DNA of 64,000 nucleotides from an uncultured Acidobacteriota bacterium (GTDB lineage: Bacteria; Acidobacteriota; Vicinamibacteria; Vicinamibacterales; UBA8438). Numbering within the stretch: the stretch's first letter is position 1; each line of letters starts with the position of its first letter. Of the stretch, positions 1,106 to 31,367 are shown piece by piece. The position numbers and the translations under genes were made by a program. The notes under the pieces were generated by a model. It was given only the letters and a program-made list of their open reading frames with translations, was not told the DNA's origin and ran no database searches. The stretch covers positions 76,909 to 140,908 of the forward strand of contig CAJWLU010000008.1 of assembly GCA_913043225.1 (NCBI GenBank), in the 5' to 3' direction.

Positions 1106-3556
1106 ATGTACCGGGTCGTAGTTCTTGTTCTGATCGGTGTGCTTACGGGTACCGGGGCCGCGACGGCCCAGTCGCTGCAGGAAGACGTCCGTCCGCTTGT
1201 GCGCGAGTCGTGCGTGCGTTGCCACGGTGTGCGCACCGTCACCCCGCTCAACCTGGTCGATCTCGGGTACGACCTGTCGGACCGCGAGACGTTCGCGACC
1301 TGGGAGAAAGTCTACGAGCGGCTCGAACGAGGGGAGATGCCCCCGTCGACGGCGGCCCAGCCTGACGGAACGGTTGTTGACGCCGCGCTCGCCTCGCTGA
1401 AGCTGGCCTTGACCGACGCGAGCGTGACGGCGCGCGGTGATCAGCGCACGCCTCTGCGCCGGCTGACCCGTCTCGAGTACGGCTACACCATCTCGGATCT
1501 GATCGGGGTGGACGAGGAGATCGGCGAAGAGCTGGGCCAGAGTCTGCCGGCCGAGGCCGACTCGGGCGGGTTCGACACCGTCGCCGCCAACCAGGCGATG
1601 TCGCCGCTCCATATCCAGAGCTATCTCGCCGCCGCTGACGCCGCTCTGGACGCCGCGCTGGTCGTCGGGCCGCCGCCGCCGGTCGACCTGTATCACGTCG
1701 ACTACGGTGTCTCGCAGTATCTCTATGGCATCGCCAACGCGAGAGCGATCGGCCTCGGCAGCGTCTTGCAGCTCGATGACGCCTACGTCCAGTTCTTCGA
1801 CTTCACCTCCACCTACACGTTCCACAGCATGTCGGAGGGGATCGCCATCCCGTATCCCGGCCGGTACGACGTGACCGTGGAGGCCTATCCCTATCAGGCC
1901 CGGACACCGGTCGGGTTCATGGTGTACCACGGTAAGCTGGCGGGCGTGGCGGCGTCGCTCGACGAGCTGATCGGGGCCTACGATCTGGAGGCCGGCGAGA
2001 CGACGGCGGTCAAGCTGAGGCCGTTCATGCGTCCTGGCGACCTGATCGGCGTGACGCCGATCGATACCGATGTTCCCCCGGACGCCGATCCCGCCACCCT
2101 CTCACCGGCGGACCCCGCCGACGGTTACATCGATCTCATCCAGGACTATCCCGGCGAAGGAGTGGCGTTCAAGTCGATGACGATCGAGGGGCCCATCCTC
2201 GACGCCTGGCCTCCCGAGAGCACGCGTCAGCTCCTGGTCGGGGTCGAGTTTGATGAGGAGCACCAGGTCCGTCTGACCAAGGAGCCGTATGCTCACGTGG
2301 TGGACGTCGTGGCGGCCTTCGCCCCGCGCGCGTTCCGCCGGCCGTTAAGCGATGAGCAGATCGAGGCCTATGCCTCGTTGGCGCGTCCCCTGATAGAAGA
2401 GGGGCGGCCGTTCCTCGAGGCGGTGCGGGTACCCTTGCGCGCCATTCTCAGCGCGCCAGCCTTTCTCTTTCACGGCGCGTCGGCGTCGGCCGAGCTCGAC
2501 GACTTCGACCTGGCCACCAGGCTGTCGTACTTTCTCTGGCGAAGCATGCCCGACGAGGCGCTGCTCGCGGCGGCCCGCGACGGCCGGCTGTCTGACTCGT
2601 CGGCGCTGATCGCGCAGGTCGACCGGATGCTGGACGACCCGAAGTCCTCGCGGTTCGTCAAAGACTTCGCCGGCCAGGCGTTCCGGATCTACGAGTTGAG
2701 GTCCACCACGCCTGACCCGGGGCTCTATCCGGAATACGAAGACCGGCTTGGCCAGGCGATGGCCTGGGAGACGCAGCTCTTCTTCGGTGAGCTGATCGCC
2801 AGCAACCTCGGGGCGGGCGCCCTGATCGACGCCGACTTCACGTTCTTGAATCGGCGGCTGGCCGACCACTACGGCGTGCCGGATGTCGTCGGCATGCAGA
2901 TGCGCAAGGTGGACCTCCCGGCCGGGAGTCCGCGCGGCGGGCTGCTGACCCAGGCCGCCGTCCACAAGATCACGGCCAACGGCACCGCGACCTCACCGAT
3001 TCCCCGTGGCAACTTCGTCTTGACGAACCTACTGGGGCGTCCGGCGCCGCCACCGCCCGCCGAGGTGGGCGCGCTCGAACCGGATACCCGCGGTACGACG
3101 ACCATCCGTGAGCAGCTCGACGCCCACCGGAGCAGCCCGGTGTGCGCGAACTGTCACCGGGTGATCGACCCGCCCGGGTTCGCCATGGAGTCGTTCGACC
3201 CGATCGGCGGGTTCAGGACGAACTATCGCGTGCCGGGTGAGGCGATGGACTTCGACGGTTTCATAGTGCCCGGGCCTTTCACGGACGGAGCGCGGGTCGA
3301 CGCGAGCGGCGTGACCCCAGGGGGCGACAGCTTCGCGGACATCAACGAGTACAAGCGACTGCTGATCGATACCGAGCTCGACGCGGTGGCCGGTCACTTG
3401 GCGTCGCAATTGCTGATCTTTGCGACCGGTGCCGAGATCGCGTTCGCCGACCGTGCGGCGGTCGACGGCATCGTTAATGCCGGTCGCACCGAAGGCCATC
3501 CGGTGCGCACGATGATTCAGCGGATCGTTGGCAGTGACCTGTTCAAGACGCGCTGA
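1106..3556 (+). CDS. DUF1592/1588/1587/1595/1585 di-heme cytochrome c-like exported protein, paralog A
   Basis: Signal peptide, CVRCH...GEMPP, RRLTRLEY, RLSYFLWRSMPD, RGGLL, CANCH-xx-IDPPGF. Confidence 0.92.
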   Translation: MYRVVVLVLIGVLTGTGAATAQSLQEDVRPLVRESCVRCHGVRTVTPLNLVDLGYDLSDRETFATWEKVYERLERGEMPPSTAAQPDGTVVDAALASLKLALTDASVTARGDQRTPLRRLTRLEYGYTISDLIGVDEEIGEELGQSLPAEADSGGFDTVAANQAMSPLHIQSYLAAADAALDAALVVGPPPPVDLYHVDYGVSQYLYGIANARAIGLGSVLQLDDAYVQFFDFTSTYTFHSMSEGIAIPYPGRYDVTVEAYPYQARTPVGFMVYHGKLAGVAASLDELIGAYDLEAGETTAVKLRPFMRPGDLIGVTPIDTDVPPDADPATLSPADPADGYIDLIQDYPGEGVAFKSMTIEGPILDAWPPESTRQLLVGVEFDEEHQVRLTKEPYAHVVDVVAAFAPRAFRRPLSDEQIEAYASLARPLIEEGRPFLEAVRVPLRAILSAPAFLFHGASASAELDDFDLATRLSYFLWRSMPDEALLAAARDGRLSDSSALIAQVDRMLDDPKSSRFVKDFAGQAFRIYELRSTTPDPGLYPEYEDRLGQAMAWETQLFFGELIASNLGAGALIDADFTFLNRRLADHYGVPDVVGMQMRKVDLPAGSPRGGLLTQAAVHKITANGTATSPIPRGNFVLTNLLGRPAPPPPAEVGALEPDTRGTTTIREQLDAHRSSPVCANCHRVIDPPGFAMESFDPIGGFRTNYRVPGEAMDFDGFIVPGPFTDGARVDASGVTPGGDSFADINEYKRLLIDTELDAVAGHLASQLLIFATGAEIAFADRAAVDGIVNAGRTEGHPVRTMIQRIVGSDLFKTR

Positions 3557-3627
3557 CCCAGGTGTGTCTGTCCGGGTCGACGTTATACTTCCCTCTACAG
3601 AGGTGTGAGCTCCATAACGAGGTTCCT

Positions 3628-4671: not shown

Positions 4672-4704
4672 TACGTGACTGACTCCGTAATTGAGGCATC
4701 TGAT

Positions 4705-5628
4705 ATGAACGTCGACACATACCGTAACGTTTTTTCGAGTGCGCTGGCGTTGACGCTTGTGCTGTTTGGGGCACCTGTCACGTTTGCCCAGTCGCCGGCG
4801 TTGTTCGTGAGTTTTACCGACGCCAACGACGGTACCCCCGTCACCGACATTACCGCTGATGAGGTCGTCATCGAGGTGGACGGAGCCCATGGCGAGACAC
4901 TCAACCTCGAACCGATCGACTGGCCGGTACGGGTCACTATCTTTGTCGATAACGGGGTGGCGAGTGTGCCCGCGTTGGCCGACATGCGCGAGGGGGTCAC
5001 GCTTTTCCTGGAAGAAATGCCGCCTGACGTTGAGGTGGCCATCGGAACCATCGGCGGACGACCACAGTTTCAGGCTCGGCATACGACCGATCGAGCGGAG
5101 CTTGCTGATGCCATCGGTACGATTGCGCCGGACATGGAAGGTGCAGCCATGTTTGTTGACGCGCTCTATGAAGAAGCGGAGCGGATGCACGAGGACGAGG
5201 AAGGGCAGTACTTCCCGGTTGTCGTGATGGTTGCGACCAATGGTCCCGAGGGCAGCAGTCGGGTGCGAGAACGGCCGTTCAGGGAGATGATGGAACGTCT
5301 GTTCGCGAACAGCGCCACCGTTCACACCAAGATGTGGGCTATCATCAGCGCCGGGGGTATCGCGCAGGGGGGCGACCAGGGCCAGCTTGGGCAAAGCATC
5401 GGTGAAGCGACGGGTGGCACTTTCGAAGCATTGACCTCGTCTAATGGGTTCCGGACCCTGCTGCCGGCGCTGGCCCAAGATATTGCCCGGAAGCACCGCC
5501 TAGTAAGCAGCCAGTATCGCGTAACCTTTGCGCCTCCGGAGGAGGCATCCGACCAACCGGCCATCCGGGTCTTGACCACCCGCTCCGGAGTGAATATGAC
5601 GCCGACTATGAACGGGAACATTCCGTAG
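4705..5628 (+). CDS. Acidobacterial VWA-like exported protein, paralog 1
   Basis: Signal peptide; D..G.PVTDIT N-terminus; PVRVTIFVDN; QYRVTFAPP C-terminal motif. Confidence 0.7.
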   Translation: MNVDTYRNVFSSALALTLVLFGAPVTFAQSPALFVSFTDANDGTPVTDITADEVVIEVDGAHGETLNLEPIDWPVRVTIFVDNGVASVPALADMREGVTLFLEEMPPDVEVAIGTIGGRPQFQARHTTDRAELADAIGTIAPDMEGAAMFVDALYEEAERMHEDEEGQYFPVVVMVATNGPEGSSRVRERPFREMMERLFANSATVHTKMWAIISAGGIAQGGDQGQLGQSIGEATGGTFEALTSSNGFRTLLPALAQDIARKHRLVSSQYRVTFAPPEEASDQPAIRVLTTRSGVNMTPTMNGNIP

Positions 5629-5959
5629 AGAGCTCGGTGTTGCGTCGCCGAGGGCCATTTTCAGGATTGTTCACTGCGTCTAACCCTATCCAATCGTTTG
5701 GATGGTAAATTCAAACACTTGAACGACCGATAGTAGGTTGAACGGTTGAGATGGAGCTAAATCTGGGCTGATTGGTGTGAGTTCAGGATGGCTTGAATCT
5801 TGCTGAGTCTTCCGTGGAAGCGGCTGAGGCTTGCCTCGGCTTCGGTGTGTGTGTTAAAAATTGGTGAAACGAAAGAGCGTGACAGGTTCCTGTTTGCGTC
5901 CGTGTGACGGAGACTGGACACCCCTGAAGTTATGGGGCCTCTGGAGGGAATGCAGGGAT

Positions 5960-8869: not shown

Positions 8870-8892
8870 AGCCGTTTTTCCGGGGTAACATG

Positions 8893-8931: not shown

Positions 8932-8942
8932 GGGCGCGCATC

Positions 8943-10724
8943 ATGCCAAGTCTCTTGTTTTTCGGCCGCGGTCTCGCCGCTGGGCTACTGCTCGCGGTTG
9001 CTGCCGACGCGTTACCACAGCCCGCAGCACCCCACGCTGGCGAGGTCTGGTTCACCGAACAAGCCGAGGCGGTTGGCATCGACTTTGTGCACTTCAATGG
9101 GATGTCGGGCGAGCTCTACGTGAGTGAACTTTTGGCCCCGGGCGCCGCGGTGTTTGACATGGACAACGACGGTGACCTCGACATCTATCTCATTCAGGGG
9201 CAAATGCTCGGTCCGGGCAAAACGCTCGACGATGCGCTTCTTCCGCCGCAGACCACTCCGTTGACGGACCGCCTCTATAGGAACGATTTGGCCATTGATA
9301 GTGACGGGCGACGCATACTGCAATTCAGAGATGTCACCGAAGCGAGTGGGCTCGACGTGCGCTCGTACGGCATGGGCGTCGCCGCGGGCGACGTCGACAA
9401 TGATGGCTGGGTCGACCTTTATCGCACCGGCCTTGGTCCGGATCAGCTGTTCCTCAATAACGGCGACGGAACCTTTGCCGATGTGTCGGACCGGATCGGC
9501 ATGGGGAATCCGGGGTGGGGTGTGTCGGCGTCATTCGTGGACTTCGATGGTGACGGCTGGCTCGACCTGTTCGTGGGCAACTACCTCCAGCACGATCTCG
9601 ACGCCCGCCAGCCAGAATGTCTGACGCGTACGGGGGAACGGGACTACTGTGGCCCGCAGGCCTACGCGGCTGTCCCCGATCGGTTGTTTCGCAACCGCGG
9701 CGACGGCACGTTCGTCGACGTGACGACCCAGGCTCTGGTGGCCGGTGAGTTCGGTCCCGCGCTCGGCGTGGTCGCTTCGGATCTTGACGGTGATGGCTGG
9801 CAGGACCTTTACGTGGCGAACGACGCCGCGCCAAACCAGCTGTGGATCAACCAGCAGGACGGGAGCTTTCGCAACGGCGCGCTGCTGGCTGGTACGGCGT
9901 TCAACGGCGATGGTCGGGTCGAGGGCAGTATGGGGGTCGATGCCGGCGATTTCGACGGTGATGGTGACGACGATCTCTTTATGACGCACCTGACGACGGA
10001 GACCAATACTCTCTATGTCAACACTGGTGCCGGGTTGTTCGAGGACCGGACCGTGCAGACCGGTCTCGGCGGCCCGAGTCTGGCCTATACCGGATTCGGG
10101 ACCGCCTGGGTGGACCTGGACAACGATGGGTGGCTCGACCTGCTGGTAGCGAATGGTGCCGTGCAGGCCAAGCATCAGCGGTTCTCGAGCCAGAGTTCGT
10201 CCGCGTCGTCACCGGCGACGGGGGCGCCGGCACTGGCCCAGCCCAATCAACTGTTCCGCAATCTGGGCAACGGCCGGTTTGAGGAGACCAGCGACCGGGC
10301 TGGCGTCGTATTCGAGCTGTCTGGAGTGAGTCGAGGCGCCGCGTTCGGTGACGTGGACAACGACGGTGACGTGGACGTACTGGTCACCAACAACAACGGT
10401 CGGGCACGGCTGCTGATCAACGAGGTCGGTCACCAGCGGTCGTGGGTCGGGTTGCGGCTGGTCGGTGGCGCAGGGCCTCGCGACATGCTGGGTGCGCGGG
10501 TCGGTGTGTTCCGCGACGTGGGCGCTCCGCTTTGGCGTCGGGCAAGGGCCGACGGGAGCTACGCTTCGGCCAGCGATCCCAGGGTGCTTGTGGGGCTGGG
10601 CGAGGCGACGACGGTCGACCATGTTCGCGTGATCTGGCCTGGTGGTCGTGAAGAGGCCTGGACGGATATTCCGGTGAACCGGTGGCTGACCCTCACCGAG
10701 GGCACTGGTCGGAGCCAGCCATGA
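8943..10724 (+). CDS. CRTAC1 family / FG-GAP(VCBS) repeat protein with ASPIC-UnbV C-terminus, paralog 1
   Basis: Many DxDNDGxxDL repeats; SRGAAFGDVDNDGD; SYASASDPRVLVGLG; VIWPGG. Confidence 0.92.
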   Translation: MPSLLFFGRGLAAGLLLAVAADALPQPAAPHAGEVWFTEQAEAVGIDFVHFNGMSGELYVSELLAPGAAVFDMDNDGDLDIYLIQGQMLGPGKTLDDALLPPQTTPLTDRLYRNDLAIDSDGRRILQFRDVTEASGLDVRSYGMGVAAGDVDNDGWVDLYRTGLGPDQLFLNNGDGTFADVSDRIGMGNPGWGVSASFVDFDGDGWLDLFVGNYLQHDLDARQPECLTRTGERDYCGPQAYAAVPDRLFRNRGDGTFVDVTTQALVAGEFGPALGVVASDLDGDGWQDLYVANDAAPNQLWINQQDGSFRNGALLAGTAFNGDGRVEGSMGVDAGDFDGDGDDDLFMTHLTTETNTLYVNTGAGLFEDRTVQTGLGGPSLAYTGFGTAWVDLDNDGWLDLLVANGAVQAKHQRFSSQSSSASSPATGAPALAQPNQLFRNLGNGRFEETSDRAGVVFELSGVSRGAAFGDVDNDGDVDVLVTNNNGRARLLINEVGHQRSWVGLRLVGGAGPRDMLGARVGVFRDVGAPLWRRARADGSYASASDPRVLVGLGEATTVDHVRVIWPGGREEAWTDIPVNRWLTLTEGTGRSQP

Positions 10725-12388
10725 GCCGGCATCCCATGCGATTAGGGACGCTCTCGCTGGCGGGTCTGCTGCTGGCGACGCCGGGCGCGGCGATTGTCGG
10801 CACGGTCGCGGTCTACGCCGTCTCTCAGGCTGCCGAACCGTCCGTCGTGGCGGTGGTGCTCCCCGATCTTGAAGGCATGCATCCGTCGGTGCGGGAGCAG
10901 ATACGCGAGGCCCATCGAGCGTTGCTGGCGCTCGAGCCCGAGGATCGGAGCACGGCCTACGGACAGTTGGGCACTCTCCTGTTCGCCGGTGAGTATCTGG
11001 TCGAGGCGGAGACCTGCTTTCGCAATGCTCAGCGGCTCGCGCCAGACGTGTTTCGCTGGTCCTACTATCTGGGGCACGTGTACAAGAGCACCGGGCGGCT
11101 GACCCAGGCTGTGGAGCAGTTTGAGCAGGCGCTGCGATTGCGGCCAGGTGATCTCCCGACACTCGTGTGGCTCGGGCAGGTCCTCATCGACCTCGGTCAG
11201 CCAAAGGCCGCGGAGTTGCTGCTCGCCGACGCCGACGGGCGGCATCCGGACACCCAGTCCGTGCTGTTCCAGCTGGGTCGCGCCGCTGGCGCCATGGGGG
11301 ACCATGAGGAGGCGGTGAGCCGCCTGGAGGCTGCACTTGAGTTGAATCCCGGTGCCACGATGGTGCACTACCCGCTGGCTATGGCGTATCGCGGGCTCGG
11401 CGACCTCGAGCGGGCAGAGGCACACCTCGGCCGAAGCGGCAGAGCGGTCGGCGCTGGAGTGGCCGTGACGGTGCCCGATCCGCTGATGGCCGACGTCAAC
11501 ACGGCGCTGCGAAGCCCGCAGGCCTTCTGGGATCTCGGACTGTACGCCGGCTCGCTCGGCAACTGGCCCGAGGCGGTGAGGCAGTTCCAGAGCGCGGTCG
11601 AGCTGGCGCCAGACGTGTCGGCGCTGCGCCTAAACCTTTCCCTGGCGCTGAACCGGGTGGGCGAGGCGCGCTTCGCACTCGAGCAACTCGAGGAGGCGGT
11701 GCGTCTGGAGCCGGAGTTGGCCCTGGCGCATCTCGAAATGGGTGCGCTGTTCGAGCGGAGTGGAAGCGATCCCGAGGCGATCGACCATTTCACTCTAGCG
11801 ACGACGCACGCCCCGGGTCTGGTCGAAGCTCATCTCAGGCTGGCCGATGCGCTTCGTCGCACGGGCCAAGTCAACGCGTCCCTCGCCTCGTACGGGCAGG
11901 TGCTTAAGCTCGACCCTGGTCGGGCTGAGGCGCGCTTCGGTGAGGTGATGGCTCTGGTGCGCCTGATGCGCCATCGCGACGCCGTGACGCGTTTGCGCGA
12001 GGCGTTGGAGCATCATCCGGGGGAGCAGGCGTTCCGGCAGGCGTTGTCGCGACTGTTGGCGGCGTCGCCAGACCCGATGGTGCGCGACGGTGCCGAGGCG
12101 CTGGCGTTGGTCCAGCCGTTGACCGCGGACGGCGCCACCACGGCCGTGGCCGAGACGATCGCGATGGCGTTTGCTGAGCAAGGTGACTTTCTCGAGGCGG
12201 TCGACTGGCAGCGGGCGGCGATGTCGGGCGCTGCCGGTGCCGGGCACCCGGAGGTCGCGCAGCAAATGGCGGTGAATCTGGCGCTGTACAGGACCGGACA
12301 AGCTTGTCGAACCCCTTGGCGAGACGACGCGCCGGAACATCGACCTGGGCCGATCGTGGAAGCAGGATTGCTTGATCCAGGTCCTTGA
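10721..12388 (+). CDS. Exported TPR repeat protein
   Basis: ATGA overlap with the upstream gene; signal peptide; TPR repeats; PDPLM hinge; C-terminal LLAASPDPMVRDG motif. Confidence 0.85.
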   Translation: MSRHPMRLGTLSLAGLLLATPGAAIVGTVAVYAVSQAAEPSVVAVVLPDLEGMHPSVREQIREAHRALLALEPEDRSTAYGQLGTLLFAGEYLVEAETCFRNAQRLAPDVFRWSYYLGHVYKSTGRLTQAVEQFEQALRLRPGDLPTLVWLGQVLIDLGQPKAAELLLADADGRHPDTQSVLFQLGRAAGAMGDHEEAVSRLEAALELNPGATMVHYPLAMAYRGLGDLERAEAHLGRSGRAVGAGVAVTVPDPLMADVNTALRSPQAFWDLGLYAGSLGNWPEAVRQFQSAVELAPDVSALRLNLSLALNRVGEARFALEQLEEAVRLEPELALAHLEMGALFERSGSDPEAIDHFTLATTHAPGLVEAHLRLADALRRTGQVNASLASYGQVLKLDPGRAEARFGEVMALVRLMRHRDAVTRLREALEHHPGEQAFRQALSRLLAASPDPMVRDGAEALALVQPLTADGATTAVAETIAMAFAEQGDFLEAVDWQRAAMSGAAGAGHPEVAQQMAVNLALYRTGQACRTPWRDDAPEHRPGPIVEAGLLDPGP

Positions 12389-12418
12389 AAAGTGACTCGA
12401 TTGAAAACCAGAAATCCC

Positions 12419-13348: not shown

Positions 13349-13357
13349 AGAACGGTC

Positions 13358-14797: not shown

Positions 14798-14868
14798 CGA
14801 TGGCTGCCAGGCGCATTATATGAGCTTGAGGGCGACCGCTGGCCCGTGCGCGGAGCTCTCGGGCCCAG

Positions 14869-14896
14869 TTGACCGTCCCGTGTGGGGCCTTACAAT
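14869..14896 (+). promoter_or_regulatory. Candidate sigma70 promoter for the CRTAC1/cytochrome operon (divergent TATAAT on the minus strand at 14815-14820)
   Basis: TTGACC-16 nt-TACAAT in a divergent intergenic region. Confidence 0.45.
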
Positions 14897-14936
14897 CTGG
14901 GATGGACCGTCCGTACTGGCGGGCGAGGAACACGGG

Positions 14937-17252: not shown

Positions 17253-17263
17253 TACCGGGCGGC

Positions 17264-19030
17264 ATGCGCGGCTTTAGGTCCTTGGCAGCCGGGTGTGGCG
17301 TGCTGGCTCTCGTGGCGTGCGCGGGTGAGCCCCCGGCGCAGACGACTTCGACGGCGACCCCGATGCCCCAGCCCCCGGGGCCACCCGTGTTCCGGGATGT
17401 CGCCCTCGACACCGGTCTCGATTTCACCCATGTAATCGGCGCCTCTGGCGCCTATTTCCTCCCAGAGATTATGGGAGCCGGCGTCGCGCTCGTCGACTAC
17501 GATGGCGACGAAGACTTGGACATCTACTTGCTGCAAGGGACGCGGTTGGGCTCAGTCGAGACAGATGAGCCAGCGGCCGGGGATGACGTCCAGGAAACGG
17601 GGCATCGCCTGTTCCGGAACGAACTCTCCGAGACCGGTCGTCTTGGTTTCATCGACGTGACCGACGACGCCGGCGTCGGGCTCAGGGAATACGGGATGGG
17701 TGTGGCGGTCGGCGATATCGACAACGACGGCGACCCCGATCTCTATGTGACCGCTTTCGGCAGGAACGTGCTCTATAGGAACGATGGAGACGGCTCGTTC
17801 AGCGACGTGACCGCTGCCGCCGGTGTTGACGACCGACGCTGGAGTGCCAGTGCGTCGTTTCTGGATTATGACCGCGACGGGCGACTCGATCTCTTTGTGA
17901 CGAACTACGTGGACTTCGCTGTCCTCGACAACACCGAGTGCTACGGCGTGGAGGGCAAGCGCGACTACTGCAATCCCTTGTCGTATTCACCTGTGCCAGA
18001 TCGTCTGTTTCGCAATGCCGGGGACGGCACGTTCACGGATGTCTCTGGGAGTTCCGGCATCCAGCGGGCGTTCGGGAGCGGTCTCGGCGTGGTCGCCGCC
18101 GACTTCAATGGCGATGGCTGGCCAGACATCTATGTTGCCAACGACGGCAATGCGAACCAGTTGTGGCAGAACAACAAGGACGGGACATTCACCGATGTCG
18201 CCCTGCTCTCGGGCACGGCCTACAACGCGAACGGCGATGCGGAAGGTGGGATGGGCGCGACGGCGGGTGACGTTGATGGCGACGGCGACGAAGATCTCTT
18301 CGTTTCACATCTGGGCGAGGAAACCAACACGCTCTACGTGAATGGTCGCGAGGGGGTGTTCCGAGATGACACGCTCCGTTCGGGGTTGGGTGCGGCGAGT
18401 ATCGGGTACACGGGGTTTGGCGCACGGTGGTTCGACTATGACCAGGACGGGTCGCTGGATCTGTTCGTGGCCAACGGTGCGGTCAGCAACGTCGAATCGC
18501 GTCGAGGCACACCGTATCCATTCCAGCAACGTAACCAGCTGTTCCGTGGTCTCGGTGACGGCCGTCTCGCCGAGGTTCGAGGTGACGCCGGGTCGGCGAT
18601 TGAATTCGTGGAGGTCTCTCGTGGGGCCGCGTTCGGGGACGTCGACAATGATGGGGACGTTGATATCGTCGTCTCCAACAACAACGGCCCGGTGCGGCTT
18701 CTGTTGAACGAGGCTGGCCCGCCGGCTGGGTCACTGAGCCTTCGTTTCGAAGGCGTCGACAGCAGCCGCGATGGTATCGGTGCCCGGGTTGCGCTGCTTA
18801 GGGTTGATGCCGATCCGATCTGGCGCCGGGTACACCGAGACGGAAGCTATCTCAGTGCGAGCGACCCTCGGGTGGTCTTTGGACTGGGCGACGGAGGCGA
18901 AGAGGCTGTCGAAGGGATTGGAGTCGTCTGGCCAGACGGGACGCGCGAGCGCTGGGCGCGCGGCGACCTTGAATCGGGTACGACCCGCCTACGTCAGGGA
19001 TCCGGGCAGCCCTGGCTGGCTGGAACGTAA
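17264..19030 (+). CDS. CRTAC1 family lipoprotein, paralog 3 (alternative start GTG 17249)
   Basis: LVAC lipobox; FG-GAP repeats; SYLSASDPRVVFGLG; VVWPDG. Confidence 0.9.
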   Translation: MRGFRSLAAGCGVLALVACAGEPPAQTTSTATPMPQPPGPPVFRDVALDTGLDFTHVIGASGAYFLPEIMGAGVALVDYDGDEDLDIYLLQGTRLGSVETDEPAAGDDVQETGHRLFRNELSETGRLGFIDVTDDAGVGLREYGMGVAVGDIDNDGDPDLYVTAFGRNVLYRNDGDGSFSDVTAAAGVDDRRWSASASFLDYDRDGRLDLFVTNYVDFAVLDNTECYGVEGKRDYCNPLSYSPVPDRLFRNAGDGTFTDVSGSSGIQRAFGSGLGVVAADFNGDGWPDIYVANDGNANQLWQNNKDGTFTDVALLSGTAYNANGDAEGGMGATAGDVDGDGDEDLFVSHLGEETNTLYVNGREGVFRDDTLRSGLGAASIGYTGFGARWFDYDQDGSLDLFVANGAVSNVESRRGTPYPFQQRNQLFRGLGDGRLAEVRGDAGSAIEFVEVSRGAAFGDVDNDGDVDIVVSNNNGPVRLLLNEAGPPAGSLSLRFEGVDSSRDGIGARVALLRVDADPIWRRVHRDGSYLSASDPRVVFGLGDGGEEAVEGIGVVWPDGTRERWARGDLESGTTRLRQGSGQPWLAGT

Positions 19031-19064
19031 CGGGAGGGCGCGTCCCACAAGTAAACTGGGTATC

Positions 19065-20597
19065 GTGACTGCGAAGAGACGACGGAAGAAGCCGGTCGGT
19101 CGCACACGGGGGCGTGGTCAAGGGCAGGAAGGGAGCGCTCGCTCTGTCTCTGATGTGGGACACCGTTCGGTGTTGACCACTAGGAGAGTGGTGTACGGGG
19201 CCATGGTGGCGGGCCTCGTCCTCTTCTTGTCGGTTGCTGCTGGGCAGTTCTCGTTCCTTAGCGACCGACAGCCGGCCAGTGTCGAGGCTGGTCTATCCGA
19301 GCCGGTGGACGCTCCGGCGGAGTCTGAGTCTGTCCAGACGCCGACCCTGCCGCTCCCTACAAGCTCGAGCTCCGAGCTAGCCATACCGGTTAATGACCCC
19401 GTGCTGGTAATGGATCCATGGGCGCGCTATGCCTCCAACGAGCTGCTTGGCAAGGTTCTGTTGCCAGAAGGGAGCGACGCGTCGGTTGGTGACGGCGGAG
19501 TTGGCTCGGCCGGGTTCGTGGGTCCGCAGGCCTGCGCTGAGTGCCATCGGGGCCGTTATGAGGGCTTTGTCGAGACGTCCCACTATCATTCCTCTCAGGT
19601 CGCCACGGCCGACACGGTCATGGGGGCCTTCGAGACGCCGAGTAACCAGGTGGCGACCCGGGTGCGTCAGCTGGGCTACCGAATGGACACTCGTCCCGAC
19701 GGTCTCTACCAGACGGTCGTCGTTGATGGTCGAGATGCTCACGCCGAGCGGATGGACATCGTCGTGGGGTCAGGCAAGATTGGGCAGAGCTACTTGTACT
19801 GGCGTGATGATGAGCTATTTCAGCTCCCGATCTCCTATCTCACGACGCCGGATTCGTGGATGAATAGTCCGGGCTACCCGGACGGGATGGCCGACTTCAA
19901 GAGGCCGGTGGTCGGCGGATGTCTCCAGTGCCACTCGACATGGTTCGAGGCCAGGAGCGCCGATTTGATGAATCACCGCTTCCTCCCCGAAGGGTTCGTA
20001 CTGGGGGTCACCTGCGAGCGCTGCCACGGTCCTGGCGAGGACCACGTCGCCTACCACCGGGCTCAGCCGGATGATCGTGAAGCCCGACACATCGTCCACC
20101 CGGGCCAGTTACCGAATGAGCGGTTGACTGATATCTGTCGCCAGTGCCACGGCGGGCTCGCGTCACCGACGCGTGCACCTTTTTCGTTCCGCCCTGGGGA
20201 GGATTTGAACGATTACATCGAGCCCCCAGCCGGTCGGCCGGGTATCCATACCAACAATCAGATGCAGCAACTGAGTCTGAGCCGCTGCTTCCAGGAGAGC
20301 GCGGACATGTCGTGCATTACTTGCCACAATCCGCACCAGAACGAACGTGGCAACGACGCGCTGTTCGCCATCCGTTGCCAGCAGTGCCACGAGGCGGCTG
20401 ATCATCCACTCGAGTCAACCGTTGGCGCGACAGCGCTTGGCGAGAACTGTACGAGTTGCCATATGCCCAAGAGCCCGTTGTTAGAGACTCCTCTGCGATC
20501 GAGCGAGGGTGTGGTGTTTCCGGAGATGGTCGATCACTTCATCCGGACTGGAGTCAGCGATCAGGATCTTGTGGAGAGGCTAGCGTCAGAACGCTAG
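19065..20597 (+). CDS. Membrane-anchored multiheme cytochrome c (7 CxxCH)
   Basis: CAECH, CLQCH, CERCH, CRQCH, CITCH, CQQCH, CTSCH; basic N-terminus followed by a TM helix; GSGKIGQSYL motif; start uncertain. Confidence 0.88.
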   Translation: MTAKRRRKKPVGRTRGRGQGQEGSARSVSDVGHRSVLTTRRVVYGAMVAGLVLFLSVAAGQFSFLSDRQPASVEAGLSEPVDAPAESESVQTPTLPLPTSSSSELAIPVNDPVLVMDPWARYASNELLGKVLLPEGSDASVGDGGVGSAGFVGPQACAECHRGRYEGFVETSHYHSSQVATADTVMGAFETPSNQVATRVRQLGYRMDTRPDGLYQTVVVDGRDAHAERMDIVVGSGKIGQSYLYWRDDELFQLPISYLTTPDSWMNSPGYPDGMADFKRPVVGGCLQCHSTWFEARSADLMNHRFLPEGFVLGVTCERCHGPGEDHVAYHRAQPDDREARHIVHPGQLPNERLTDICRQCHGGLASPTRAPFSFRPGEDLNDYIEPPAGRPGIHTNNQMQQLSLSRCFQESADMSCITCHNPHQNERGNDALFAIRCQQCHEAADHPLESTVGATALGENCTSCHMPKSPLLETPLRSSEGVVFPEMVDHFIRTGVSDQDLVERLASER

Positions 20598-21137: not shown

Positions 21138-23582
21138 ATGTACTCTCATGTTCTCCGCACGCTGCCACTGGCCCTGTTCGCGAGCGTTGCCGCGGCGCAG
21201 CCGTTCGAACACGACCTCCGTCCGCTGGTACGCGATTCGTGCGTCCGGTGCCACGGCGTTCGCACCGTTACGCCGCTGAACCTAGTCGATCTGGATTATG
21301 ACCTGACCGACCGCGAGACCTTTGCCACCTGGGAGAAGGTGTACGAGCGGCTTGAGCGGGGTGAGATGCCGCCCGACACGGCTCCCCAGCCGGCGCGGGC
21401 GATGGTTGACGCGGCGTTGACGTCGCTCGGGTCGGCGTTGACCGACGCGAACCTGTCAGCCCGCGGCGGCCAGCGCACGCCGCTCCGGCGGCTCACTCGC
21501 CTAGAGTACGGTTTCACGATAGCTGACCTGCTCGGCGTGGACGAGGCACTGGGGGCTGAGCTCGCGCAGCTGTTGCCGGCCGAAGCTGATTCTGGTGGGT
21601 TCGACACCGTGGCCGCCAATCAGGCAATGTCGCCCCTGCACGTGCAGAGCTATCTCGCGGCCGCCGATGCTGCGCTCGACGCGGCGCTTCAGGTGGGAGC
21701 CCCACCGCCGATCGAGGCCCGCGTCCGGAACTATCGTCAGTCTGACTATCTGGCTCTGCTCGAAGGTTGTGACTTCCGGGCGTGTGGTGCGATCCGTCAG
21801 CTCGACGACGCCTACGTTGCCTTCTCTGAGGTCGCCTCTACCTTCTCATTCCATACCGGCTGGGCTTCCGAGTTGATCGAGATTCCCGCACCCGGTCGCT
21901 ATAGGGTCTCGGTCGAGGCCTATCCGTTTCAGGCCGATACGGTGGTCACGCTGGCGCTCTATCAGGGGCGTCTGGTCGCGGTGAACGCTGCCATGAACCG
22001 GCTGATCGCCACTATGGATCTGGTCGGCGACGAGAGCCGGACGTTGGAGGTGACACCGTTCCTCTATCCGGGTGATCTGATTGCCCCGGTGCCATTCGAC
22101 AACGAGGCGCCTCCAGGAGACCGGCCCGAGAACTACTTCGCTCCGGAGAAGCACGTGCGGGACTATGAGGGTGAAGGCATCGCACTGAAGTCGATCACGA
22201 TCGACGGTCCTCTCTATGACTCGTGGCCGCCCCCGAGCACGCATGCCCTGCTGTCTGGGATCATGTTCGATGCGAACCACAACGTCGTGCTCTCGAAGAC
22301 ACCCTACGAGCACGTGGTGGACGTCGTCGAGCGGTTCGCGCCCCTGGCCTTCCGTCGGCCGCTGGCTGAGGGCGAGCTCGAAACGTATGCAAGCTTGGCC
22401 GAGCCGCTGCTCGCCGAGGGCCGCTCCTTCGTCGACGCGGTGCGAGTGCCGTTGCGGGCGGTGCTGAGCGCACCCGCGTTCCTGTTCCACGGGGCGGCCG
22501 GGGCGTCCGGTGCGCTCGACGACTTCGAATTGGCCACGCGGCTGTCGTATTTTCTGTGGCGGAGCCAGCCTGACGAAGTGTTGTTCGAGCTGGCGCACTC
22601 GGGGCGGCTGTCGAATCCGGAGATCTTGTCCGGGGAGGTCGAACGGATGCTCGACGATCCGAAGGTCGAGCGGTTCGTACACGACTTTTTTGGGCAGGCA
22701 CTGCGGCTGAACGAGTTGCGCGCCACGAGTCCGGATCCCGGTCTCTACCCGGAGTACGACGACCGTCTGGGGCAGGCGATGGAGCAGGAGACGCAGCTGT
22801 TCCTCGCCGAGTTGATCGCGACCGATGAGGGCGTGGACAGTCTCATCGATGCGGAGTTCACCTTCCTGAACCGTCGACTGGCAGAGCACTACGGCGTCGA
22901 AGGGGTCACCGGCACCGAGATGCGCCAAGTGACACTGCCGGCCGAGAGCCCGCGCGGAGGTCTGCTGACGCAGGCCAGCATCCACAAGATCACGGCGAAC
23001 GGCACGACGACGTCTCCAATCCCGCGCGGCAACTTCGTGCTGTCGAACCTGCTGGGTCGGCCTGCACCCCCACCGCCTGAGGCAGTCGGCGCGCTCGAAC
23101 CGGACACCCGGGGTACTACGACTATCCGCGAACAGCTCGACGCACATCGGAACAGCCCGGTGTGCGCCAGCTGTCACCGCTCCATCGATCCGCCCGGCTT
23201 CGCGCTCGAGTCGTTCGACCCGATCGGTGGGTTCCGTACTCGCTATCGGGTCTCTGGGGGACCGGACGTCGACCGCGGGAACGGGGATCTTCAGCCTGCT
23301 CTCTACGCGGAAGGTCCGGCGGTGGACGCAAGCGGCATCACTCTTGGCGGGCAGCGGTTCACCGGGCTCGAGGAGTACAAGGCGCTGTTGCTTGAGACCG
23401 AGCTCGACGCCGTCGCACGGCACCTCACCACGGAGTTCTTCGTGTTCTCGACCGGCGCCGAGGTAGAATTCGCCGACCGGCCGGCGATCGCAGCGATCGT
23501 GGATGCCGGTCGCACGGACCGTTATCCAATCCGCAGCATGATTCACGGCGTCGTCGCGAGCGATTTATTTCGTCAGCGGTAG
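21138..23582 (+). CDS. DUF1592-type di-heme exported protein, paralog B
   Basis: CVRCH...GEMPP, RLSYFLW, CASCH; near-identical framework to paralog A. Confidence 0.92.
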   Translation: MYSHVLRTLPLALFASVAAAQPFEHDLRPLVRDSCVRCHGVRTVTPLNLVDLDYDLTDRETFATWEKVYERLERGEMPPDTAPQPARAMVDAALTSLGSALTDANLSARGGQRTPLRRLTRLEYGFTIADLLGVDEALGAELAQLLPAEADSGGFDTVAANQAMSPLHVQSYLAAADAALDAALQVGAPPPIEARVRNYRQSDYLALLEGCDFRACGAIRQLDDAYVAFSEVASTFSFHTGWASELIEIPAPGRYRVSVEAYPFQADTVVTLALYQGRLVAVNAAMNRLIATMDLVGDESRTLEVTPFLYPGDLIAPVPFDNEAPPGDRPENYFAPEKHVRDYEGEGIALKSITIDGPLYDSWPPPSTHALLSGIMFDANHNVVLSKTPYEHVVDVVERFAPLAFRRPLAEGELETYASLAEPLLAEGRSFVDAVRVPLRAVLSAPAFLFHGAAGASGALDDFELATRLSYFLWRSQPDEVLFELAHSGRLSNPEILSGEVERMLDDPKVERFVHDFFGQALRLNELRATSPDPGLYPEYDDRLGQAMEQETQLFLAELIATDEGVDSLIDAEFTFLNRRLAEHYGVEGVTGTEMRQVTLPAESPRGGLLTQASIHKITANGTTTSPIPRGNFVLSNLLGRPAPPPPEAVGALEPDTRGTTTIREQLDAHRNSPVCASCHRSIDPPGFALESFDPIGGFRTRYRVSGGPDVDRGNGDLQPALYAEGPAVDASGITLGGQRFTGLEEYKALLLETELDAVARHLTTEFFVFSTGAEVEFADRPAIAAIVDAGRTDRYPIRSMIHGVVASDLFRQR

Positions 23583-23615
23583 AGCAAGGCTGGAGCCGCG
23601 GCGGCAGGAGGCAGG

Positions 23616-26063
23616 ATGAGGAGTCTTTGGTTGTTGCTGGTGGCTCTGGCCCTGGTTCCCGACCTGGCTTATCCCCAGTCGTTCGGGGACGACGTCCGCC
23701 CTCTGCTGCGCGAGTCCTGCGTGCGATGCCACGGTGTTCGTACGGTCACGCCACTCAACCTTGTAGACCTTGGCGACGACCTCACTGATCACGAGACGTT
23801 TCAGGCCTGGGAGAAGGTCTACGACCGGCTCTCACGCGGCGAGATGCCGCCCGCCGCGGCGCCGCCGGCTGACGGCCAGCAGGTCGACGCCGCGCTTGCC
23901 GCGTTGAAGGACGCTCTGACGGAGAGGAGTCTGGCCGAGCGAGGCGAGCAGCGCACGCCGCTGCGCCGTCTCACTCGATTGGAGTACGCCTACACGATCC
24001 AGGATTTGCTGGGCATCGACGATGCGATTGCCTCCGATCTCAGTCAGACGCTGCCGGCGGAGGCCGACTCCGGTGGGTTTGACACGGTCGCTGCCAATCA
24101 GAGCATGTCGCCGCTTCATATCCAGTCCTATCTGGAGGTGGCCGATCGCGCACTCGACACGGCGCTCGCCGTGGGACCACCTCCACCGGTCGATACCTAT
24201 GTGATCGACTATGCAAACTCCAGGTATCTCTATGGGATAAGCCGGGGGAAGGGGCTAGGTATCGGCGTGGTGAAGGAGCTCGACGACGGCTACGCGATGT
24301 TCTTCGATGTGGGGAGCTACATCTTCCACAGCATGACCGAAGGCGTGGCCATTCCCTATCCGGGCCGTTACCGGGTGACGGCCGAGGCCTACCCATATCA
24401 GGCCGACGCTCCGGTCAACTTGATGGTCTATCGGGGGAGGATGTCGGGCCAGGCGGCGTCCCTCGACGGGATGGTGGGCTCGTTCGACCTCACGGGGCCC
24501 CGGACCATCGAGGTCACACCGTTTCTGCGGCCGGGAGAGCTGATCAGCTTCTCACCCGGCGATCTCTCCGGGCTCGACGGGCTGCCGGAGGAGGAGCGTG
24601 GGGGCTATCCACCTGAGGATCCGTTCGACGGCTGGGGTGGGATGCACGGCTATCCCGGGAGTGGCATCGTCCTCAAGACGATGACGATCGAGGGGCCTCT
24701 GCTCGACTCGTGGCCAGCCCCCTCTACGCGGGCCCTGTTACCCGGGGTCGAGTTCGACCGGGACGGCGCGCCGCGGTTCACCCGGTCACAGGACGAGCAC
24801 CTGGTCGATATCGTGGCGTCATTCGCGCCACGCGCCTTCCGCCGGCCGCTCGAAGATGGCGAACTTGATGCCTACGTCGACCTCGGGCGACCGTTGCTGG
24901 CCGAGGGGCGTGCCTTCCTTGAGGCGGTCCGGGTGGCGCTGCGCGCGGTGCTGAGTGCCCCGTCGTTCCTCTATCACGCTGGGTCGCCCGGAGAGCTGGA
25001 CGACTTCAGCCTCGCTACCCGCCTGTCCTACTTCCTGTGGCGCAGCATGCCGGACGCGGAGCTGTTCGACACTGCCAGGGCCGGTCAGCTGGTCGACCCC
25101 AAGGTGCTGCGCCGCCAGGTCGACCGGATGCTCGATGATCCAAAGGCCGAGCGGTTTACCAGAGACTTCGCCGGGCAGGCGTTCCGGCTCTACGAGTTGT
25201 CGGCTACGAGCCCCGATCCCGGCCTCTACCCGGAGTTCGACGACCGCTTGGCCCGGGCGATGGCTCAGGAGACACAGCTGTTCCTGGCCGAGCTGGTCAG
25301 TGAGAACCTCGGAGTCGGTCAGCTGATAGATGCTGACTTCACGTTCCTGAATCGCCGGCTCGCCGAGCACTACGACGTCGATGGTGTGGCTGGTGCGCGG
25401 ATGCGACGGGTTACGCTCCCCCCCGACAGCCCACGCGGCGGGTTGTTGACGCAGGCGAGTATCCATAAGATCACGGCCAACGGCACCACCACATCGCCGA
25501 TTCCACGCGGCAACTTCGTACTGTCGAACCTGCTCGGACGGCCCGCGCCGCCCCCGCCCGCTGAGGTTGGTGCGCTCGAGCCGGACACTCGCGGCACCAC
25601 AACCATACGCGAGCAGCTCGACGCGCACCGCACCAGTCCGGTGTGCGCGAACTGTCACCGGGTCATCGATCCGCCGGGGTTCGCTCTGGAGGCGTTCGAT
25701 CCGATCGGGCAGTTCCGGACGCGGTATCGCACGTCGGGAGGGGAGAACGTCGCCGGAGAATTCAAGCTGTCGGTGCCGGCCCCCTTTACCGAGGGAGGGG
25801 AGGTTGACCCCAGCGGCGTGACGCCAGACGGTGACGCCTTCGCCGGTATCAAGGACTACAAGCGTCTGCTTCTTGAGCGCGAAGTCGACCAGGTCGCCAG
25901 ACATTTGGCATCGAGTCTGCTGGTGTTCGGCACCGGTGCCGAGCAGGCCTTCGCCGATAGAGATACCGTTGAGGCGATCGTCTCCAGCGGTCGCGACCAG
26001 GGGCACCAGGTGCGCACGATGATTCACGAGGTCGTCCAGAGCGATCTGTTCCGTCGTCGGTAA
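23616..26063 (+). CDS. DUF1592-type di-heme exported protein, paralog C
   Basis: ggagg SD; CVRCH, RLSYFLW, CANCH. Confidence 0.92.
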   Translation: MRSLWLLLVALALVPDLAYPQSFGDDVRPLLRESCVRCHGVRTVTPLNLVDLGDDLTDHETFQAWEKVYDRLSRGEMPPAAAPPADGQQVDAALAALKDALTERSLAERGEQRTPLRRLTRLEYAYTIQDLLGIDDAIASDLSQTLPAEADSGGFDTVAANQSMSPLHIQSYLEVADRALDTALAVGPPPPVDTYVIDYANSRYLYGISRGKGLGIGVVKELDDGYAMFFDVGSYIFHSMTEGVAIPYPGRYRVTAEAYPYQADAPVNLMVYRGRMSGQAASLDGMVGSFDLTGPRTIEVTPFLRPGELISFSPGDLSGLDGLPEEERGGYPPEDPFDGWGGMHGYPGSGIVLKTMTIEGPLLDSWPAPSTRALLPGVEFDRDGAPRFTRSQDEHLVDIVASFAPRAFRRPLEDGELDAYVDLGRPLLAEGRAFLEAVRVALRAVLSAPSFLYHAGSPGELDDFSLATRLSYFLWRSMPDAELFDTARAGQLVDPKVLRRQVDRMLDDPKAERFTRDFAGQAFRLYELSATSPDPGLYPEFDDRLARAMAQETQLFLAELVSENLGVGQLIDADFTFLNRRLAEHYDVDGVAGARMRRVTLPPDSPRGGLLTQASIHKITANGTTTSPIPRGNFVLSNLLGRPAPPPPAEVGALEPDTRGTTTIREQLDAHRTSPVCANCHRVIDPPGFALEAFDPIGQFRTRYRTSGGENVAGEFKLSVPAPFTEGGEVDPSGVTPDGDAFAGIKDYKRLLLEREVDQVARHLASSLLVFGTGAEQAFADRDTVEAIVSSGRDQGHQVRTMIHEVVQSDLFRRR

Positions 26064-26065
26064 CC

Positions 26066-27208: not shown

Positions 27209-27259
27209 CGCTGAGAGTCTGATCCCCGTGGTACGATCACGACTTCGCGAGGTCGACAG

Positions 27260-29722
27260 ATGAGCGATATGGCGAGATTCCACCGAGCGGGGTTGGCGGC
27301 CGTGTGCCTGCTGGGTATGACAACGGCGGCGACCTCAGGCCAGCCCCTGGAAGACGATGTCGGACCGCTCGTGCGCGAGTCCTGCGTCCGCTGTCACGGT
27401 GTGCGCACGGTAACTCCCCTCAATCTGGTCGACCTCGGCTATGACCTGTCCGATCGTGAGACCTTCAGGACCTGGGAGAAGGTTTATGAACGGCTCGAGC
27501 GGGGCGAGATGCCACCGTCAACGGCTCCCCGGCCCAAAGCCGCGTCTGTTGAATCGGCTCTTGGCGCCCTTCGGCAGGCTCTCTCCGAGGCGAGCTTGGT
27601 TGCCCGAGGCGAGCAGCGGGGGGCACTGCGCCGGCTGACCAGGCTTGAGTATGCCAACACCGTGTCCGATTTGCTTGGCGTTGACCCTGAGATAGGTACC
27701 GAGCTGTCTCTGACCCTGCCGGCTGAGGCCGATTCGGGCGGTTTCGATACCGTCGCCGCTAACCAGAGCATGTCGCCGCTCCATGTCCGGAGCTATCTGG
27801 CCGCGGCCGACGAGGTGCTGGACGTCGCACTTGTCACCGGACCGCCCCCGCCGGTCGAGCGCTACGAGATCGACTACGCGACCTCCGAGCGTCTGTATCG
27901 CCATAGCCAGAGGATCGGCCTTGGCGCGGGCATGGCAAGACAACTCGACGACGCCTACGTGGCGTTCTTCGACTATGCGGCGACCTACACGTTCCACAGC
28001 GAGGCTGAGGGCGTCTCCATCCCCTATCCCGGCCGCTACCGCGTCAGCGTCGAGGCATATCGCTATCAGGCCGAGACCCCGGTGGCGCTGAAGATCTACC
28101 GGGGGCTGAAGGCCGGGGTTGCCTCCACGCTCAACGACTTGATCGGCTGGTTCGACCTCACCGACGACGAGACCGTTACGGTCGAAGTCATGCCCTTCCT
28201 CCGCCCCGGACATCTCATCGGGGTGGCCCCGGACGACGCGGACGGCGATGACGACCCAGCTCTGGCCTTCGAGGATCGGTCGCAGGGCTATCGGGAGGTT
28301 CTGAAGACCTACGAGGGTGAAGGCATTGCCTTCAAGACGATGACCATCGAGGGGCCGTTGCTTGAGAGCTGGCCTCCTCGGAGCACGCGCGACCTGCTGC
28401 CCGGCGTCGGGTTCGATCACGACGGCTACGTTCAGTTTGCGAAGGCGCCGTTCGAGCACGTGGTCGACGCTGTGGCGGCGTTCGCACCGCGCGCGTTCCG
28501 CCGTCCGGTCGACGTCGACGAGGTGATGACGTATGCCTCGCTGGCGCGCCCGGTTCTCGAGGCCGGGCGGCCGTTCATCGAGGCGGTGCGGGTGCCGCTG
28601 CGCGCGATCCTAAGCGCGCCGTCGTTCCTTTATTTGAGTGGTGAGTCGGCCTCACCACACCTCGACGATGTCGAGCTGGCAACGCGGTTGTCGTACTTCC
28701 TGTGGCGGAGTCACCCTGACAGCGAGCTGTCCGAGCTCGCGGTCGACGGACGGCTGCAAGACCCGGCGGTGCTGGTCGGTCAGGTCGACCGCTTGCTGAA
28801 CGACCCGCGTTCACGGCGTTTTGTTAATGATTTTCTCGGGCAGGCGTTCCGGCTCTACGAGATGACGGCCACGAATCCGGATCCGGGACTGTATCCGGAG
28901 TTTGACGATCGGCTCGGGCAGGCGATGGTGGCCGAGACGCAGTTGTTTCTGGCCGAATTGATCGCCGAGGATCTCAGCGCGGCCAACCTGATCGACGCCG
29001 ACTTTACCTTTGTGAACCGTCCGTTGGCCGAGCACTACGGGCTGCCTGGGATCTTGGGCACGGAGATGCGGAAGGTGCCGCTGCCGGCGGACAGTCCTCG
29101 CGGCGGCTTGCTCAGTCAGTCGAGCGTACTCAAGATCACGGCCAACGGTACGAACACGTCTCCGATCCCGCGCGGGAACTTCGTGCTGGAGAACCTCCTC
29201 GGTCGACCAGCGCCGCCCCCGCCGGCCGAGGTGGGCGCGCTCGAGCCGGATACCCGGGGAACCATCACCATTCGCGAGCAACTTGACGCGCACCGGAAGA
29301 GCCCAACCTGCGCTAACTGTCATCGGGTCATTGACCCGCCAGGGTTCGCCCTGGAATCGTTCGACCCGATCGGCGGGTTCCGCGCTAGTTACCGGATCTC
29401 TGGTGGTCAGAAGGAGTTTGGGTCGTTCATTATCCGGAACCCGTATCTCGAGGGCCCATCGGTCGACTCGAGCGGGGTGACTCCAGATGGGATGTCATTC
29501 AGTGGGTTCGTGGACTACAAGCAGCATCTGCTCGACCGTGAGCTCGACGCGGTGGCTCGTCACCTGGTGTCGCAGCTCATTGTCTTTTCGACCGGGGCCG
29601 ACACTGCGTTCGCCGACCGAGTTTGGATCGACGCCATCGTGGATGCGGAGCGAGAGGCCGGATACCCAGTCCGTTCATTGATCCACCGGATCGTGGCGAG
29701 CGATCTGTTCCGCCAGAGGTAG
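27260..29722 (+). CDS. DUF1592-type di-heme exported protein, paralog D
   Basis: CVRCH, RLSYFLW, CANCH; same framework as A-C. Confidence 0.92.
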   Translation: MSDMARFHRAGLAAVCLLGMTTAATSGQPLEDDVGPLVRESCVRCHGVRTVTPLNLVDLGYDLSDRETFRTWEKVYERLERGEMPPSTAPRPKAASVESALGALRQALSEASLVARGEQRGALRRLTRLEYANTVSDLLGVDPEIGTELSLTLPAEADSGGFDTVAANQSMSPLHVRSYLAAADEVLDVALVTGPPPPVERYEIDYATSERLYRHSQRIGLGAGMARQLDDAYVAFFDYAATYTFHSEAEGVSIPYPGRYRVSVEAYRYQAETPVALKIYRGLKAGVASTLNDLIGWFDLTDDETVTVEVMPFLRPGHLIGVAPDDADGDDDPALAFEDRSQGYREVLKTYEGEGIAFKTMTIEGPLLESWPPRSTRDLLPGVGFDHDGYVQFAKAPFEHVVDAVAAFAPRAFRRPVDVDEVMTYASLARPVLEAGRPFIEAVRVPLRAILSAPSFLYLSGESASPHLDDVELATRLSYFLWRSHPDSELSELAVDGRLQDPAVLVGQVDRLLNDPRSRRFVNDFLGQAFRLYEMTATNPDPGLYPEFDDRLGQAMVAETQLFLAELIAEDLSAANLIDADFTFVNRPLAEHYGLPGILGTEMRKVPLPADSPRGGLLSQSSVLKITANGTNTSPIPRGNFVLENLLGRPAPPPPAEVGALEPDTRGTITIREQLDAHRKSPTCANCHRVIDPPGFALESFDPIGGFRASYRISGGQKEFGSFIIRNPYLEGPSVDSSGVTPDGMSFSGFVDYKQHLLDRELDAVARHLVSQLIVFSTGADTAFADRVWIDAIVDAEREAGYPVRSLIHRIVASDLFRQR

Positions 29723-30535: not shown

Positions 30536-30544
30536 CAAGGAGAC

Positions 30545-31354: not shown

Positions 31355-31367
31355 GGGATCAGGCGTT

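Follow-up and report, generated by a model that had tools for sequence, protein, structure and literature searches.

The stretch of DNA analyzed here (the window; 64,000 nt, G000:C8:76909-140908) raises the question of what a bacterium might do with several similar di-haem proteins that keep a common framework and differ most in a few loops. It belongs to a 3.85-Mb genome that is 96% complete, and the sequencing runs containing its DNA are mostly marine metagenomes. Pairs of DUF1592 and DUF1552 genes encode exported systems that are abundant in environmental bacteria and still lack an explanation, with 32 DUF1592 genes in this genome alone. In their published description they constitute the Group III "planctomycete-specific" cytochromes (PSCyt3/PSD2-5, corresponding to DUF1588/1585/1587/1592/1595), which pair with DUF1552, occur in many copies per genome and have no known function (PMC5615132). 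An earlier note on this locus had read four such genes, A to D, as specificity variants of one periplasmic haem machine, either receptor or enzyme, with hypervariable loops forming a ligand pocket and invariant surfaces docking a common partner.

All features described here lie on the forward strand unless stated otherwise. The window opens with the 3' part (1..990) of a clade-specific DUF1552 (HXXSHH) gene (full gene G000:C8:76636-77898; PF07586, E 3.5e-55), and paralog A (816 aa, 1106..3556) lies directly 3' of it. Paralogs B (814 aa, 21138..23582) and C (815 aa, 23616..26063) are 33 nt apart and are followed by an FMN oxidoreductase gene (PF00724, 26066..27208), which sits 2 nt from C and 51 nt from D (820 aa, 27260..29722) and is probably co-transcribed with these neighbours. 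D is followed by two genes of the glyoxalase/VOC fold, whose N-termini resemble signal peptides, and by a short-chain dehydrogenase gene (29723..32114). Further downstream, a canonical DUF1592 gene with its own DUF1552 (49054..52883), about 30% identical to A, serves as an internal control from outside the clade; the open reading frame at 33719-36184, considered as a fifth paralog, reads as an ABC transporter and was ruled out. Contigs from RNA runs overlap A, B, D and the DUF1552 gene, but at low depth and with no silent control for comparison, so that they do not count as evidence of expression. Inspection by eye revealed no common motif upstream of the clade genes.

Several other genes accompany the paralogs. 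Between A and B lie three FG-GAP/ASPIC-UnbV propeller genes interspersed with TPR genes (8943-19030) and two paralogous, unannotated secreted proteins (4675-5628 and 12392-13348), while a multihaem cytochrome with seven CxxCH motifs, possibly an electron partner, is encoded directly 5' of B (18771-20597). On the reverse strand, positions 41575-46043 hold a sister module, a DUF1501 gene paired with a PSCyt1/PSCyt2/PSD1 gene. Positions 32463-33536 and, on the reverse strand, 39477-40433 encode members of a secreted family that lacks annotation and any Pfam match and begins with "TxWGxPDLxG"; a family with a similar start, judged by eye, adjoins clade loci in 32 of 50 genomes. In the same-genus genome G001, the orthologs of C and D (L103, G001:C184) are about 775 nt apart, too short a distance for a 380-aa FMN oxidoreductase.

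The four genes are intact, start with ATG and share 0.63-0.66 pairwise identity. Each encodes a signal-peptide-like N-terminus and two CxxCH motifs (at residues 36 and 680 in A), as judged from sequence motifs, and in all four PSCyt3 (PF07627), PSD4 (PF07631) and the domains that often accompany them, PSD2, PSD3 and PSD5 (PF07624, PF07626 and PF07637), exceed the curated cut-offs, giving the di-haem architecture DUF1587/1595/1592/1588/1585; none of five proteins matched NCBIfam. The gene coordinates, CxxCH pairs and eight loop peptides that the earlier note reported were all recovered, and the four peptides it called invariant are identical in A-D in spite of extensive synonymous change, with 17/19, 15/17, 8/10 and 7/10 of their codons varying. 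Its statement that divergence concentrates in a few loops holds with a refinement. The three loops are indeed the most divergent (mean pairwise p-distance 0.68, 0.79 and 0.65 for loops 1 to 3; the framework has 0.32 and the region of the second haem, the most conserved part, 0.15), yet the whole middle domain diverges (0.53 over residues 188-365), with two further divergent segments at residues 231-243 and 273-282. This domain, supported by fold match and substitution rates, spans 1667..2200 in A and approximately 21696-22211, 24174-24698 and 27839-28357 in B, C and D. In A it contains loop 1 (1718-1759) and loop 2 (2069-2146), and loop 3 (residues 705-727, 3218..3286) is a predicted beta-hairpin 3' of haem 2. 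Loop 1 of B (21747-21788) and of the clade members X0 and C37 carries a cysteine pair (CDFxAC, CLGC), possibly a disulfide; B and X0 share it with their G001 orthologs, and G035/G046 have it as well. The sole coding indel listed in A is a GCGTCG (Ala-Ser) repeat at window position 2476 (residue 457) that varies by 1-2 units among conspecific sequences and is probably a neutral linker microsatellite.

The predicted model of A (pLDDT 90.9, pTM 0.90) comprises helical haem domains and a beta-sandwich at residues 192-366, a jelly-roll whose best structural match is CBM36 (Z 10.8, rmsd 2.6, 118 residues aligned), followed by CBM35 (Z 10.1) and CBM6 (Z 9.7); adhesin, MAM and Eph domains score only slightly lower (Z 9-10). 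Sequence comparison is silent on this likeness in the clade: none of 31 clade domains matched a CBM model at E<=5, and the clade jelly-rolls had no sequence match in the PDB. PDB searches with both full alignments reached at best E 0.1, the ESM Atlas returned only unnamed or PSD3/PSD5 clusters, and the profiles of clade and canonical jelly-rolls compare with a probability of 3%, an undetectable similarity. Among 16 canonical jelly-rolls, one matches CBM60 (E 1e-4). In the model loop 1 comes after the first strand of the jelly-roll and loop 2 before the last, so that both should share one end of the domain, opposite its attachment. The earlier suggestion that the variable loops gather on one surface may thus hold for loops 1 and 2, but segment 273-282 would fall at the other end by strand order and loop 3 lies outside the domain, which makes a single three-loop pocket doubtful.

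It could be argued that these loops select protein partners, such as electron donors or acceptors, instead of small molecules. The same fold performs protein recognition in the MAM, Eph and gingipain adhesin domains, and PQQ dehydrogenases, candidates for such partners, adjoin clade loci in 13 of 50 genomes. Nonetheless, the top structural matches are carbohydrate-binding modules, the one canonical sequence match is to CBM60, and no partner family follows paralog type among the clustered loci, so we regard selection of protein partners as rather unlikely. The neighbours of clade loci are, in general, generic secreted enzymes that point to no specific pathway or substrate; the glyoxalase is found again next to clade loci in 6 of 50 genomes.

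The genomic context of A-D sets them apart from other DUF1592 proteins. A BLASTP search over all 24,248 ORFs of at least 80 aa in this genome identified 26 DUF1552 genes alongside the 32 DUF1592 genes, seven of which form one clade (A and six others that are 61-66% identical to it, the remainder being 28-38% identical). The set of four is therefore real but incomplete, three more members lying outside the window: X0 (G000:C8:74092-76635), C37 (C37:106-2667, 105 nt from its contig end) and C35 (C35:20718-23201). A DUF1552 gene lies directly downstream of all 25 non-clade DUF1592 genes, the usual pairing that the earlier note had mentioned, as opposed to one of the seven clade genes, X0. The single clade DUF1552 gene sits between X0 and A, no adjacent DUF1552 accompanies B, C, D or C35, and C37 is at a contig edge. 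Among 78 metagenome loci collected independently, 57 had room downstream, and 51 of these showed an adjacent DUF1552.

The clade DUF1552 is the sole match in the genome at E<=1e-90 and is about 28% identical to the canonical DUF1552 of the window. It has a twin-arginine N-terminus, its alignment contains four invariant histidines (H295, H299, H300 and H356), and it has no counterpart (window 1-990; L123:3155-4396) of the Cys-rich segment GxCDxGxSCxY, which the aligned canonical copies of the genome conserve. In the metagenome loci, all matches of a regular-expression search for this segment lay next to DUF1552 proteins whose scores place them nearer the canonical type, and these sequence patterns suggest two chemically different DUF1552 subfamilies. 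The predicted model (pLDDT 81.7) adopts an alpha/beta fold of the sulfatase/alkaline-phosphatase superfamily, with 147 Foldseek matches at E<=0.001 and sulfamidase and LtaS at the top (TM ~0.4). Sulfatases are recognized by a CxPxR motif and by Asp/Asp...Asp-His metal ligands; by eye, both are absent from the DUF1552 alignment, which shows the invariant histidine cluster instead. The clade DUF1552 is probably a metal-binding protein.

The ratio of seven DUF1592 genes to one clade-specific DUF1552 gene fits the common partner postulated by the earlier note, and we consider it probable that one DUF1552 protein is shared by the clade DUF1592 proteins. A mirror test over 26 adjacent pairs, in which DUF1552 distance correlates 0.61 with core and 0.44 with jelly-roll distance, is weak and confounded by common descent. 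Alternatively, the orphan paralogs might act without DUF1552, as stand-alone haem proteins that bind or sense ligands. It would agree with such a role that B, C, D and C35 lack an adjacent DUF1552 and that B, C and D belong to a gene run of their own, in the company of flavin and VOC enzymes. On the other hand, the orphans retain the clade-invariant peptides of the DUF1552-linked copies, clade DUF1552 is present in nearly all the listed family genomes with clade DUF1592, and Pfam reveals no anchor or output domain. We accordingly deem stand-alone action unlikely, and, since a signal peptide is all that is seen beside the haem domains in the way of such features, an enzyme subunit is a likelier identity for these proteins than the receptor that had also been proposed.

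The excess of DUF1592 over DUF1552 recurs in relatives. At least 54 of 104 family genomes carry clade DUF1592 and at least 57 carry clade DUF1552, figures that are lower bounds because 9 and 17 candidates, respectively, were scored per genome. The clade was not found in 12 genomes from other families of the order; it also occurs in Gammaproteobacteria, with a member in one Pseudomonadales genome. Most genomes have a single clade pair and many keep ratios of 1:1 or 2:2, but DUF1592 is in excess in the single-contig genomes G033 (2:1) and G012 (6:3), as well as in G001 (4:1), G038 (4:1), G096 (4:2) and G099 (4:1, plus a second DUF1552 truncated at a contig end); G009 shows the reverse, with one DUF1592 and two DUF1552 genes. 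A tree of the 76 near full-length sequences retained from 95 distinct matches pairs B, C, D and X0 with one G001 ortholog apiece (1:1, support 99-100). Collecting orthologs, as the earlier note had advised, shows that copy number varies and that four types persist in two species.

Divergence of ligand loops between paralogs is in itself ordinary. Expressed as Fitch changes per site relative to core, 29 single-copy orthologs evolve at 1.28 [0.49-2.18] in loop 1, 1.40 [0.76-2.15] in loop 2 and 0.32 [0.06-0.65] in segments 231-243 plus 273-282, as opposed to 2.26, 2.67 and 1.88 in the seven paralogs of this genome, at similar core divergence (1.25 and 1.36 per site for orthologs and paralogs); the ortholog and paralog intervals overlap for loop 1 and are barely apart for loop 2. 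Because the loops had been defined on these seven paralogs, two further genomes were checked out of sample, and the corresponding rates were 2.67, 3.57 and 2.43 for six G012 paralogs and 2.31, 3.72 and 2.55 for four G096 paralogs. Loop 3 is equally variable in orthologs (2.63) and paralogs (2.44) and therefore behaves as ordinary drift. The possibility that the same variability would appear among single-copy orthologs, which would have pointed to neutral change, is thus realized in loop 3 and not in loops 1 and 2, and this lends support to the specificity reading for the latter.

Pairwise distances depict the same behaviour. In 22 cross-genome reciprocal nearest pairs, chosen on core alone, distances are 0.084 for core, 0.107 for loop 1 and 0.089 for loop 2, and when cross-genome pairs are binned by core distance, loop distance approximates core distance up to 0.2. 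In the 14 same-genome pairs with core distances below 0.25, however, loop distance averages 0.50-0.62 in every bin. Loop dN/dS is 0.07-0.18 in four ortholog pairs between this genome and G001, which denotes purifying selection on loops 1 and 2 within the genus, and 0.20-1.25 across 21 paralog pairs of this genome, where near-saturated synonymous change (pS 0.52-0.68) makes the values rough and no proof of positive selection. Canonical paralogs with a DUF1552 of their own likewise vary most in the jelly-roll (0.69 against 0.45), and a variable middle domain is therefore a family-wide trait. Loops 1 and 2 look like fixed specificity types, paralog-specific and yet conserved, and we hold it highly likely that they encode different specificities.

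Evidence from relatives shows that the jelly-roll segment has been exchanged between copies. The two copies of G033, about 2 Mb apart, match exactly in DNA for 498 nt ending at residue 186 and for 1073 nt beginning at residue 346, with strong differences across residues 186-345; in one of them the jelly-roll is closest to that of the G038/G039 copies, at a distance of 0.17, although the cores are 0.27 apart. The G033 junctions may be an assembly artefact. On 42 of the 76 tree sequences, the core tree fits the jelly-roll worse by 611 log-likelihood units and is rejected by three equal-sized core segments by 89-151; since all four partitions reject it in the AU test, the information lies solely in how large the conflict is. 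The same mosaic pattern appears in 24 of 260 close pairs of database proteins, which share members and are thus non-independent, with a median ratio of 1.0. Among the paralogs of G000 itself, a search for recent gene conversion found no identical tract of 40 nt or longer.

These data also bear on the notion that relaxed selection soon after duplication let the loops drift until mutual packing fixed them, so that the paralogs would be functionally equivalent dosage copies. The age of the paralogs, a dN/dS that nowhere clearly exceeds 1 and the drift actually seen in loop 3 would all suit it. Such a process does not readily account for same-genome loop distances that stay high in each bin while cross-genome pairs follow the core, for G033 flanks that were homogenized while the jelly-roll stayed distinct, or for four types retained 1:1 in two species, and we consequently judge it improbable. 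An actively diversified repertoire, immune-like or of the DGR type, is largely refuted and exceedingly improbable: loop indels between paralogs and module exchange in relatives could be cited in its favour, but polymorphic sites within 90% clusters are about as dense in loop 1 (3/92) and loop 2 (5/132) as in core (73/2360; 24 near full-length members of four clusters, out of 43 listed), a contig from another study covers B-D with 267 differences and no gaps, and long identical tracts are missing between the G000 paralogs. The term hypervariable is wrong for loops 1 and 2, and a repertoire that is still diversifying finds no support. A 3-nt insertion next to loop 2 of C occurs in one contig only, at a depth of 2.4.

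We return to the reading in which A-D are alternative subunits of a single redox enzyme in the periplasm, each recognizing a substrate and transferring electrons, with the clade DUF1552 as the other subunit. We give this reading roughly even odds; that the enzyme acts on small molecules is, in our estimate, equally balanced. Against the reading stand the many genomes with ratios of 1:1 or 2:2, the 1:2 ratio of G009, the family-wide variability of the middle domain and neighbours that suggest no particular pathway. In such an enzyme the di-haem subunit, exported by Sec, would use clade-invariant surfaces (PSD3 146-163 and PSCyt3 611-670) to dock the DUF1552 protein, exported by Tat; the loops of the jelly-roll would choose a substrate that is small and soluble and may be a sugar derivative, the histidine cluster of DUF1552 would bind the metal for the chemistry, and electrons would pass from haem 2 to haem 1 and onward. 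More tentatively, and with the balance somewhat against it, one Tat-exported metallo-subunit may combine with any of as many as seven di-haem subunits, the jelly-roll cassettes recombining across genera of marine Acidobacteriota. The clade separates constant from variable parts, one DUF1552 from seven partners, in a way that allows likely roles to be assigned, and G033 offers a natural near-isogenic pair that differs almost solely in the jelly-roll. It thus provides a natural test panel for a long-unexplained gene pair, turning an open question into a small experiment.

With regard to known systems, A-D resemble Group III in having the same five Pfam domains, two CxxCH motifs, an export signal and many copies per genome, A alone of the four lying next to a DUF1552 gene, and a carbohydrate-related role had been proposed there from CBM fusions; they differ in that the clade has one DUF1552 for seven DUF1592 genes and in that their CBM-like domain is invisible to Pfam and detected by fold alone (PMC5615132). 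The clade DUF1552 differs as well from the other DUF1552 proteins of the genome in its missing Cys-rich segment. The DUF1501 module with PSCyt1/PSCyt2/PSD1 follows the same plan of a Tat protein and an exported cytochrome with different domains; the portion of its account at hand describes it as highly duplicated, proposes electron transfer to sugars or proteins, and reports neither a shared partner nor module exchange (PMC3542564). Within a search for DUF1592/DUF1552 that extended to papers outside subscription, no published account of the clade, of partner sharing or of module exchange was found. The gene pair, its copy number and the CBM fusions have been described already.

In the C-glycoside deglycosidases DgpB/C and CarB/C, a metal-binding subunit is joined by a beta-sandwich in a second chain that sets specificity at the interface; these are TIM-barrel enzymes devoid of haem, and their beta-sandwich subunits cannot be exchanged between enzymes, which we count against swappable subunits in the clade (PMC8563793). 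The sequence link to DUF6379 reaches only E 0.14, and in canonical paralogs only, so that this likeness is analogy and not homology. In CBM6, CBM35 and CBM36, the binding site lies in loops connecting the two sheets and its shape determines specificity (PMC9843283). The predicted clade jelly-roll is co-linear with these modules across the whole domain, but it shares 5-15% identity with them, has some 50 extra loop residues and is embedded in a haem protein. The HsdS subunit of type I restriction systems combines conserved flanks and a swapped specificity domain with a common catalytic partner. In the clade, no inversion system or within-species switching is seen, and the proteins are unrelated; its plan of conserved flanks, an exchanged domain and a probably shared partner is nonetheless the same. 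If the combinatorial reading holds, recombining jelly-roll cassettes would be the counterpart of type I target-recognition domains, with dissolved organic compounds as the targets.
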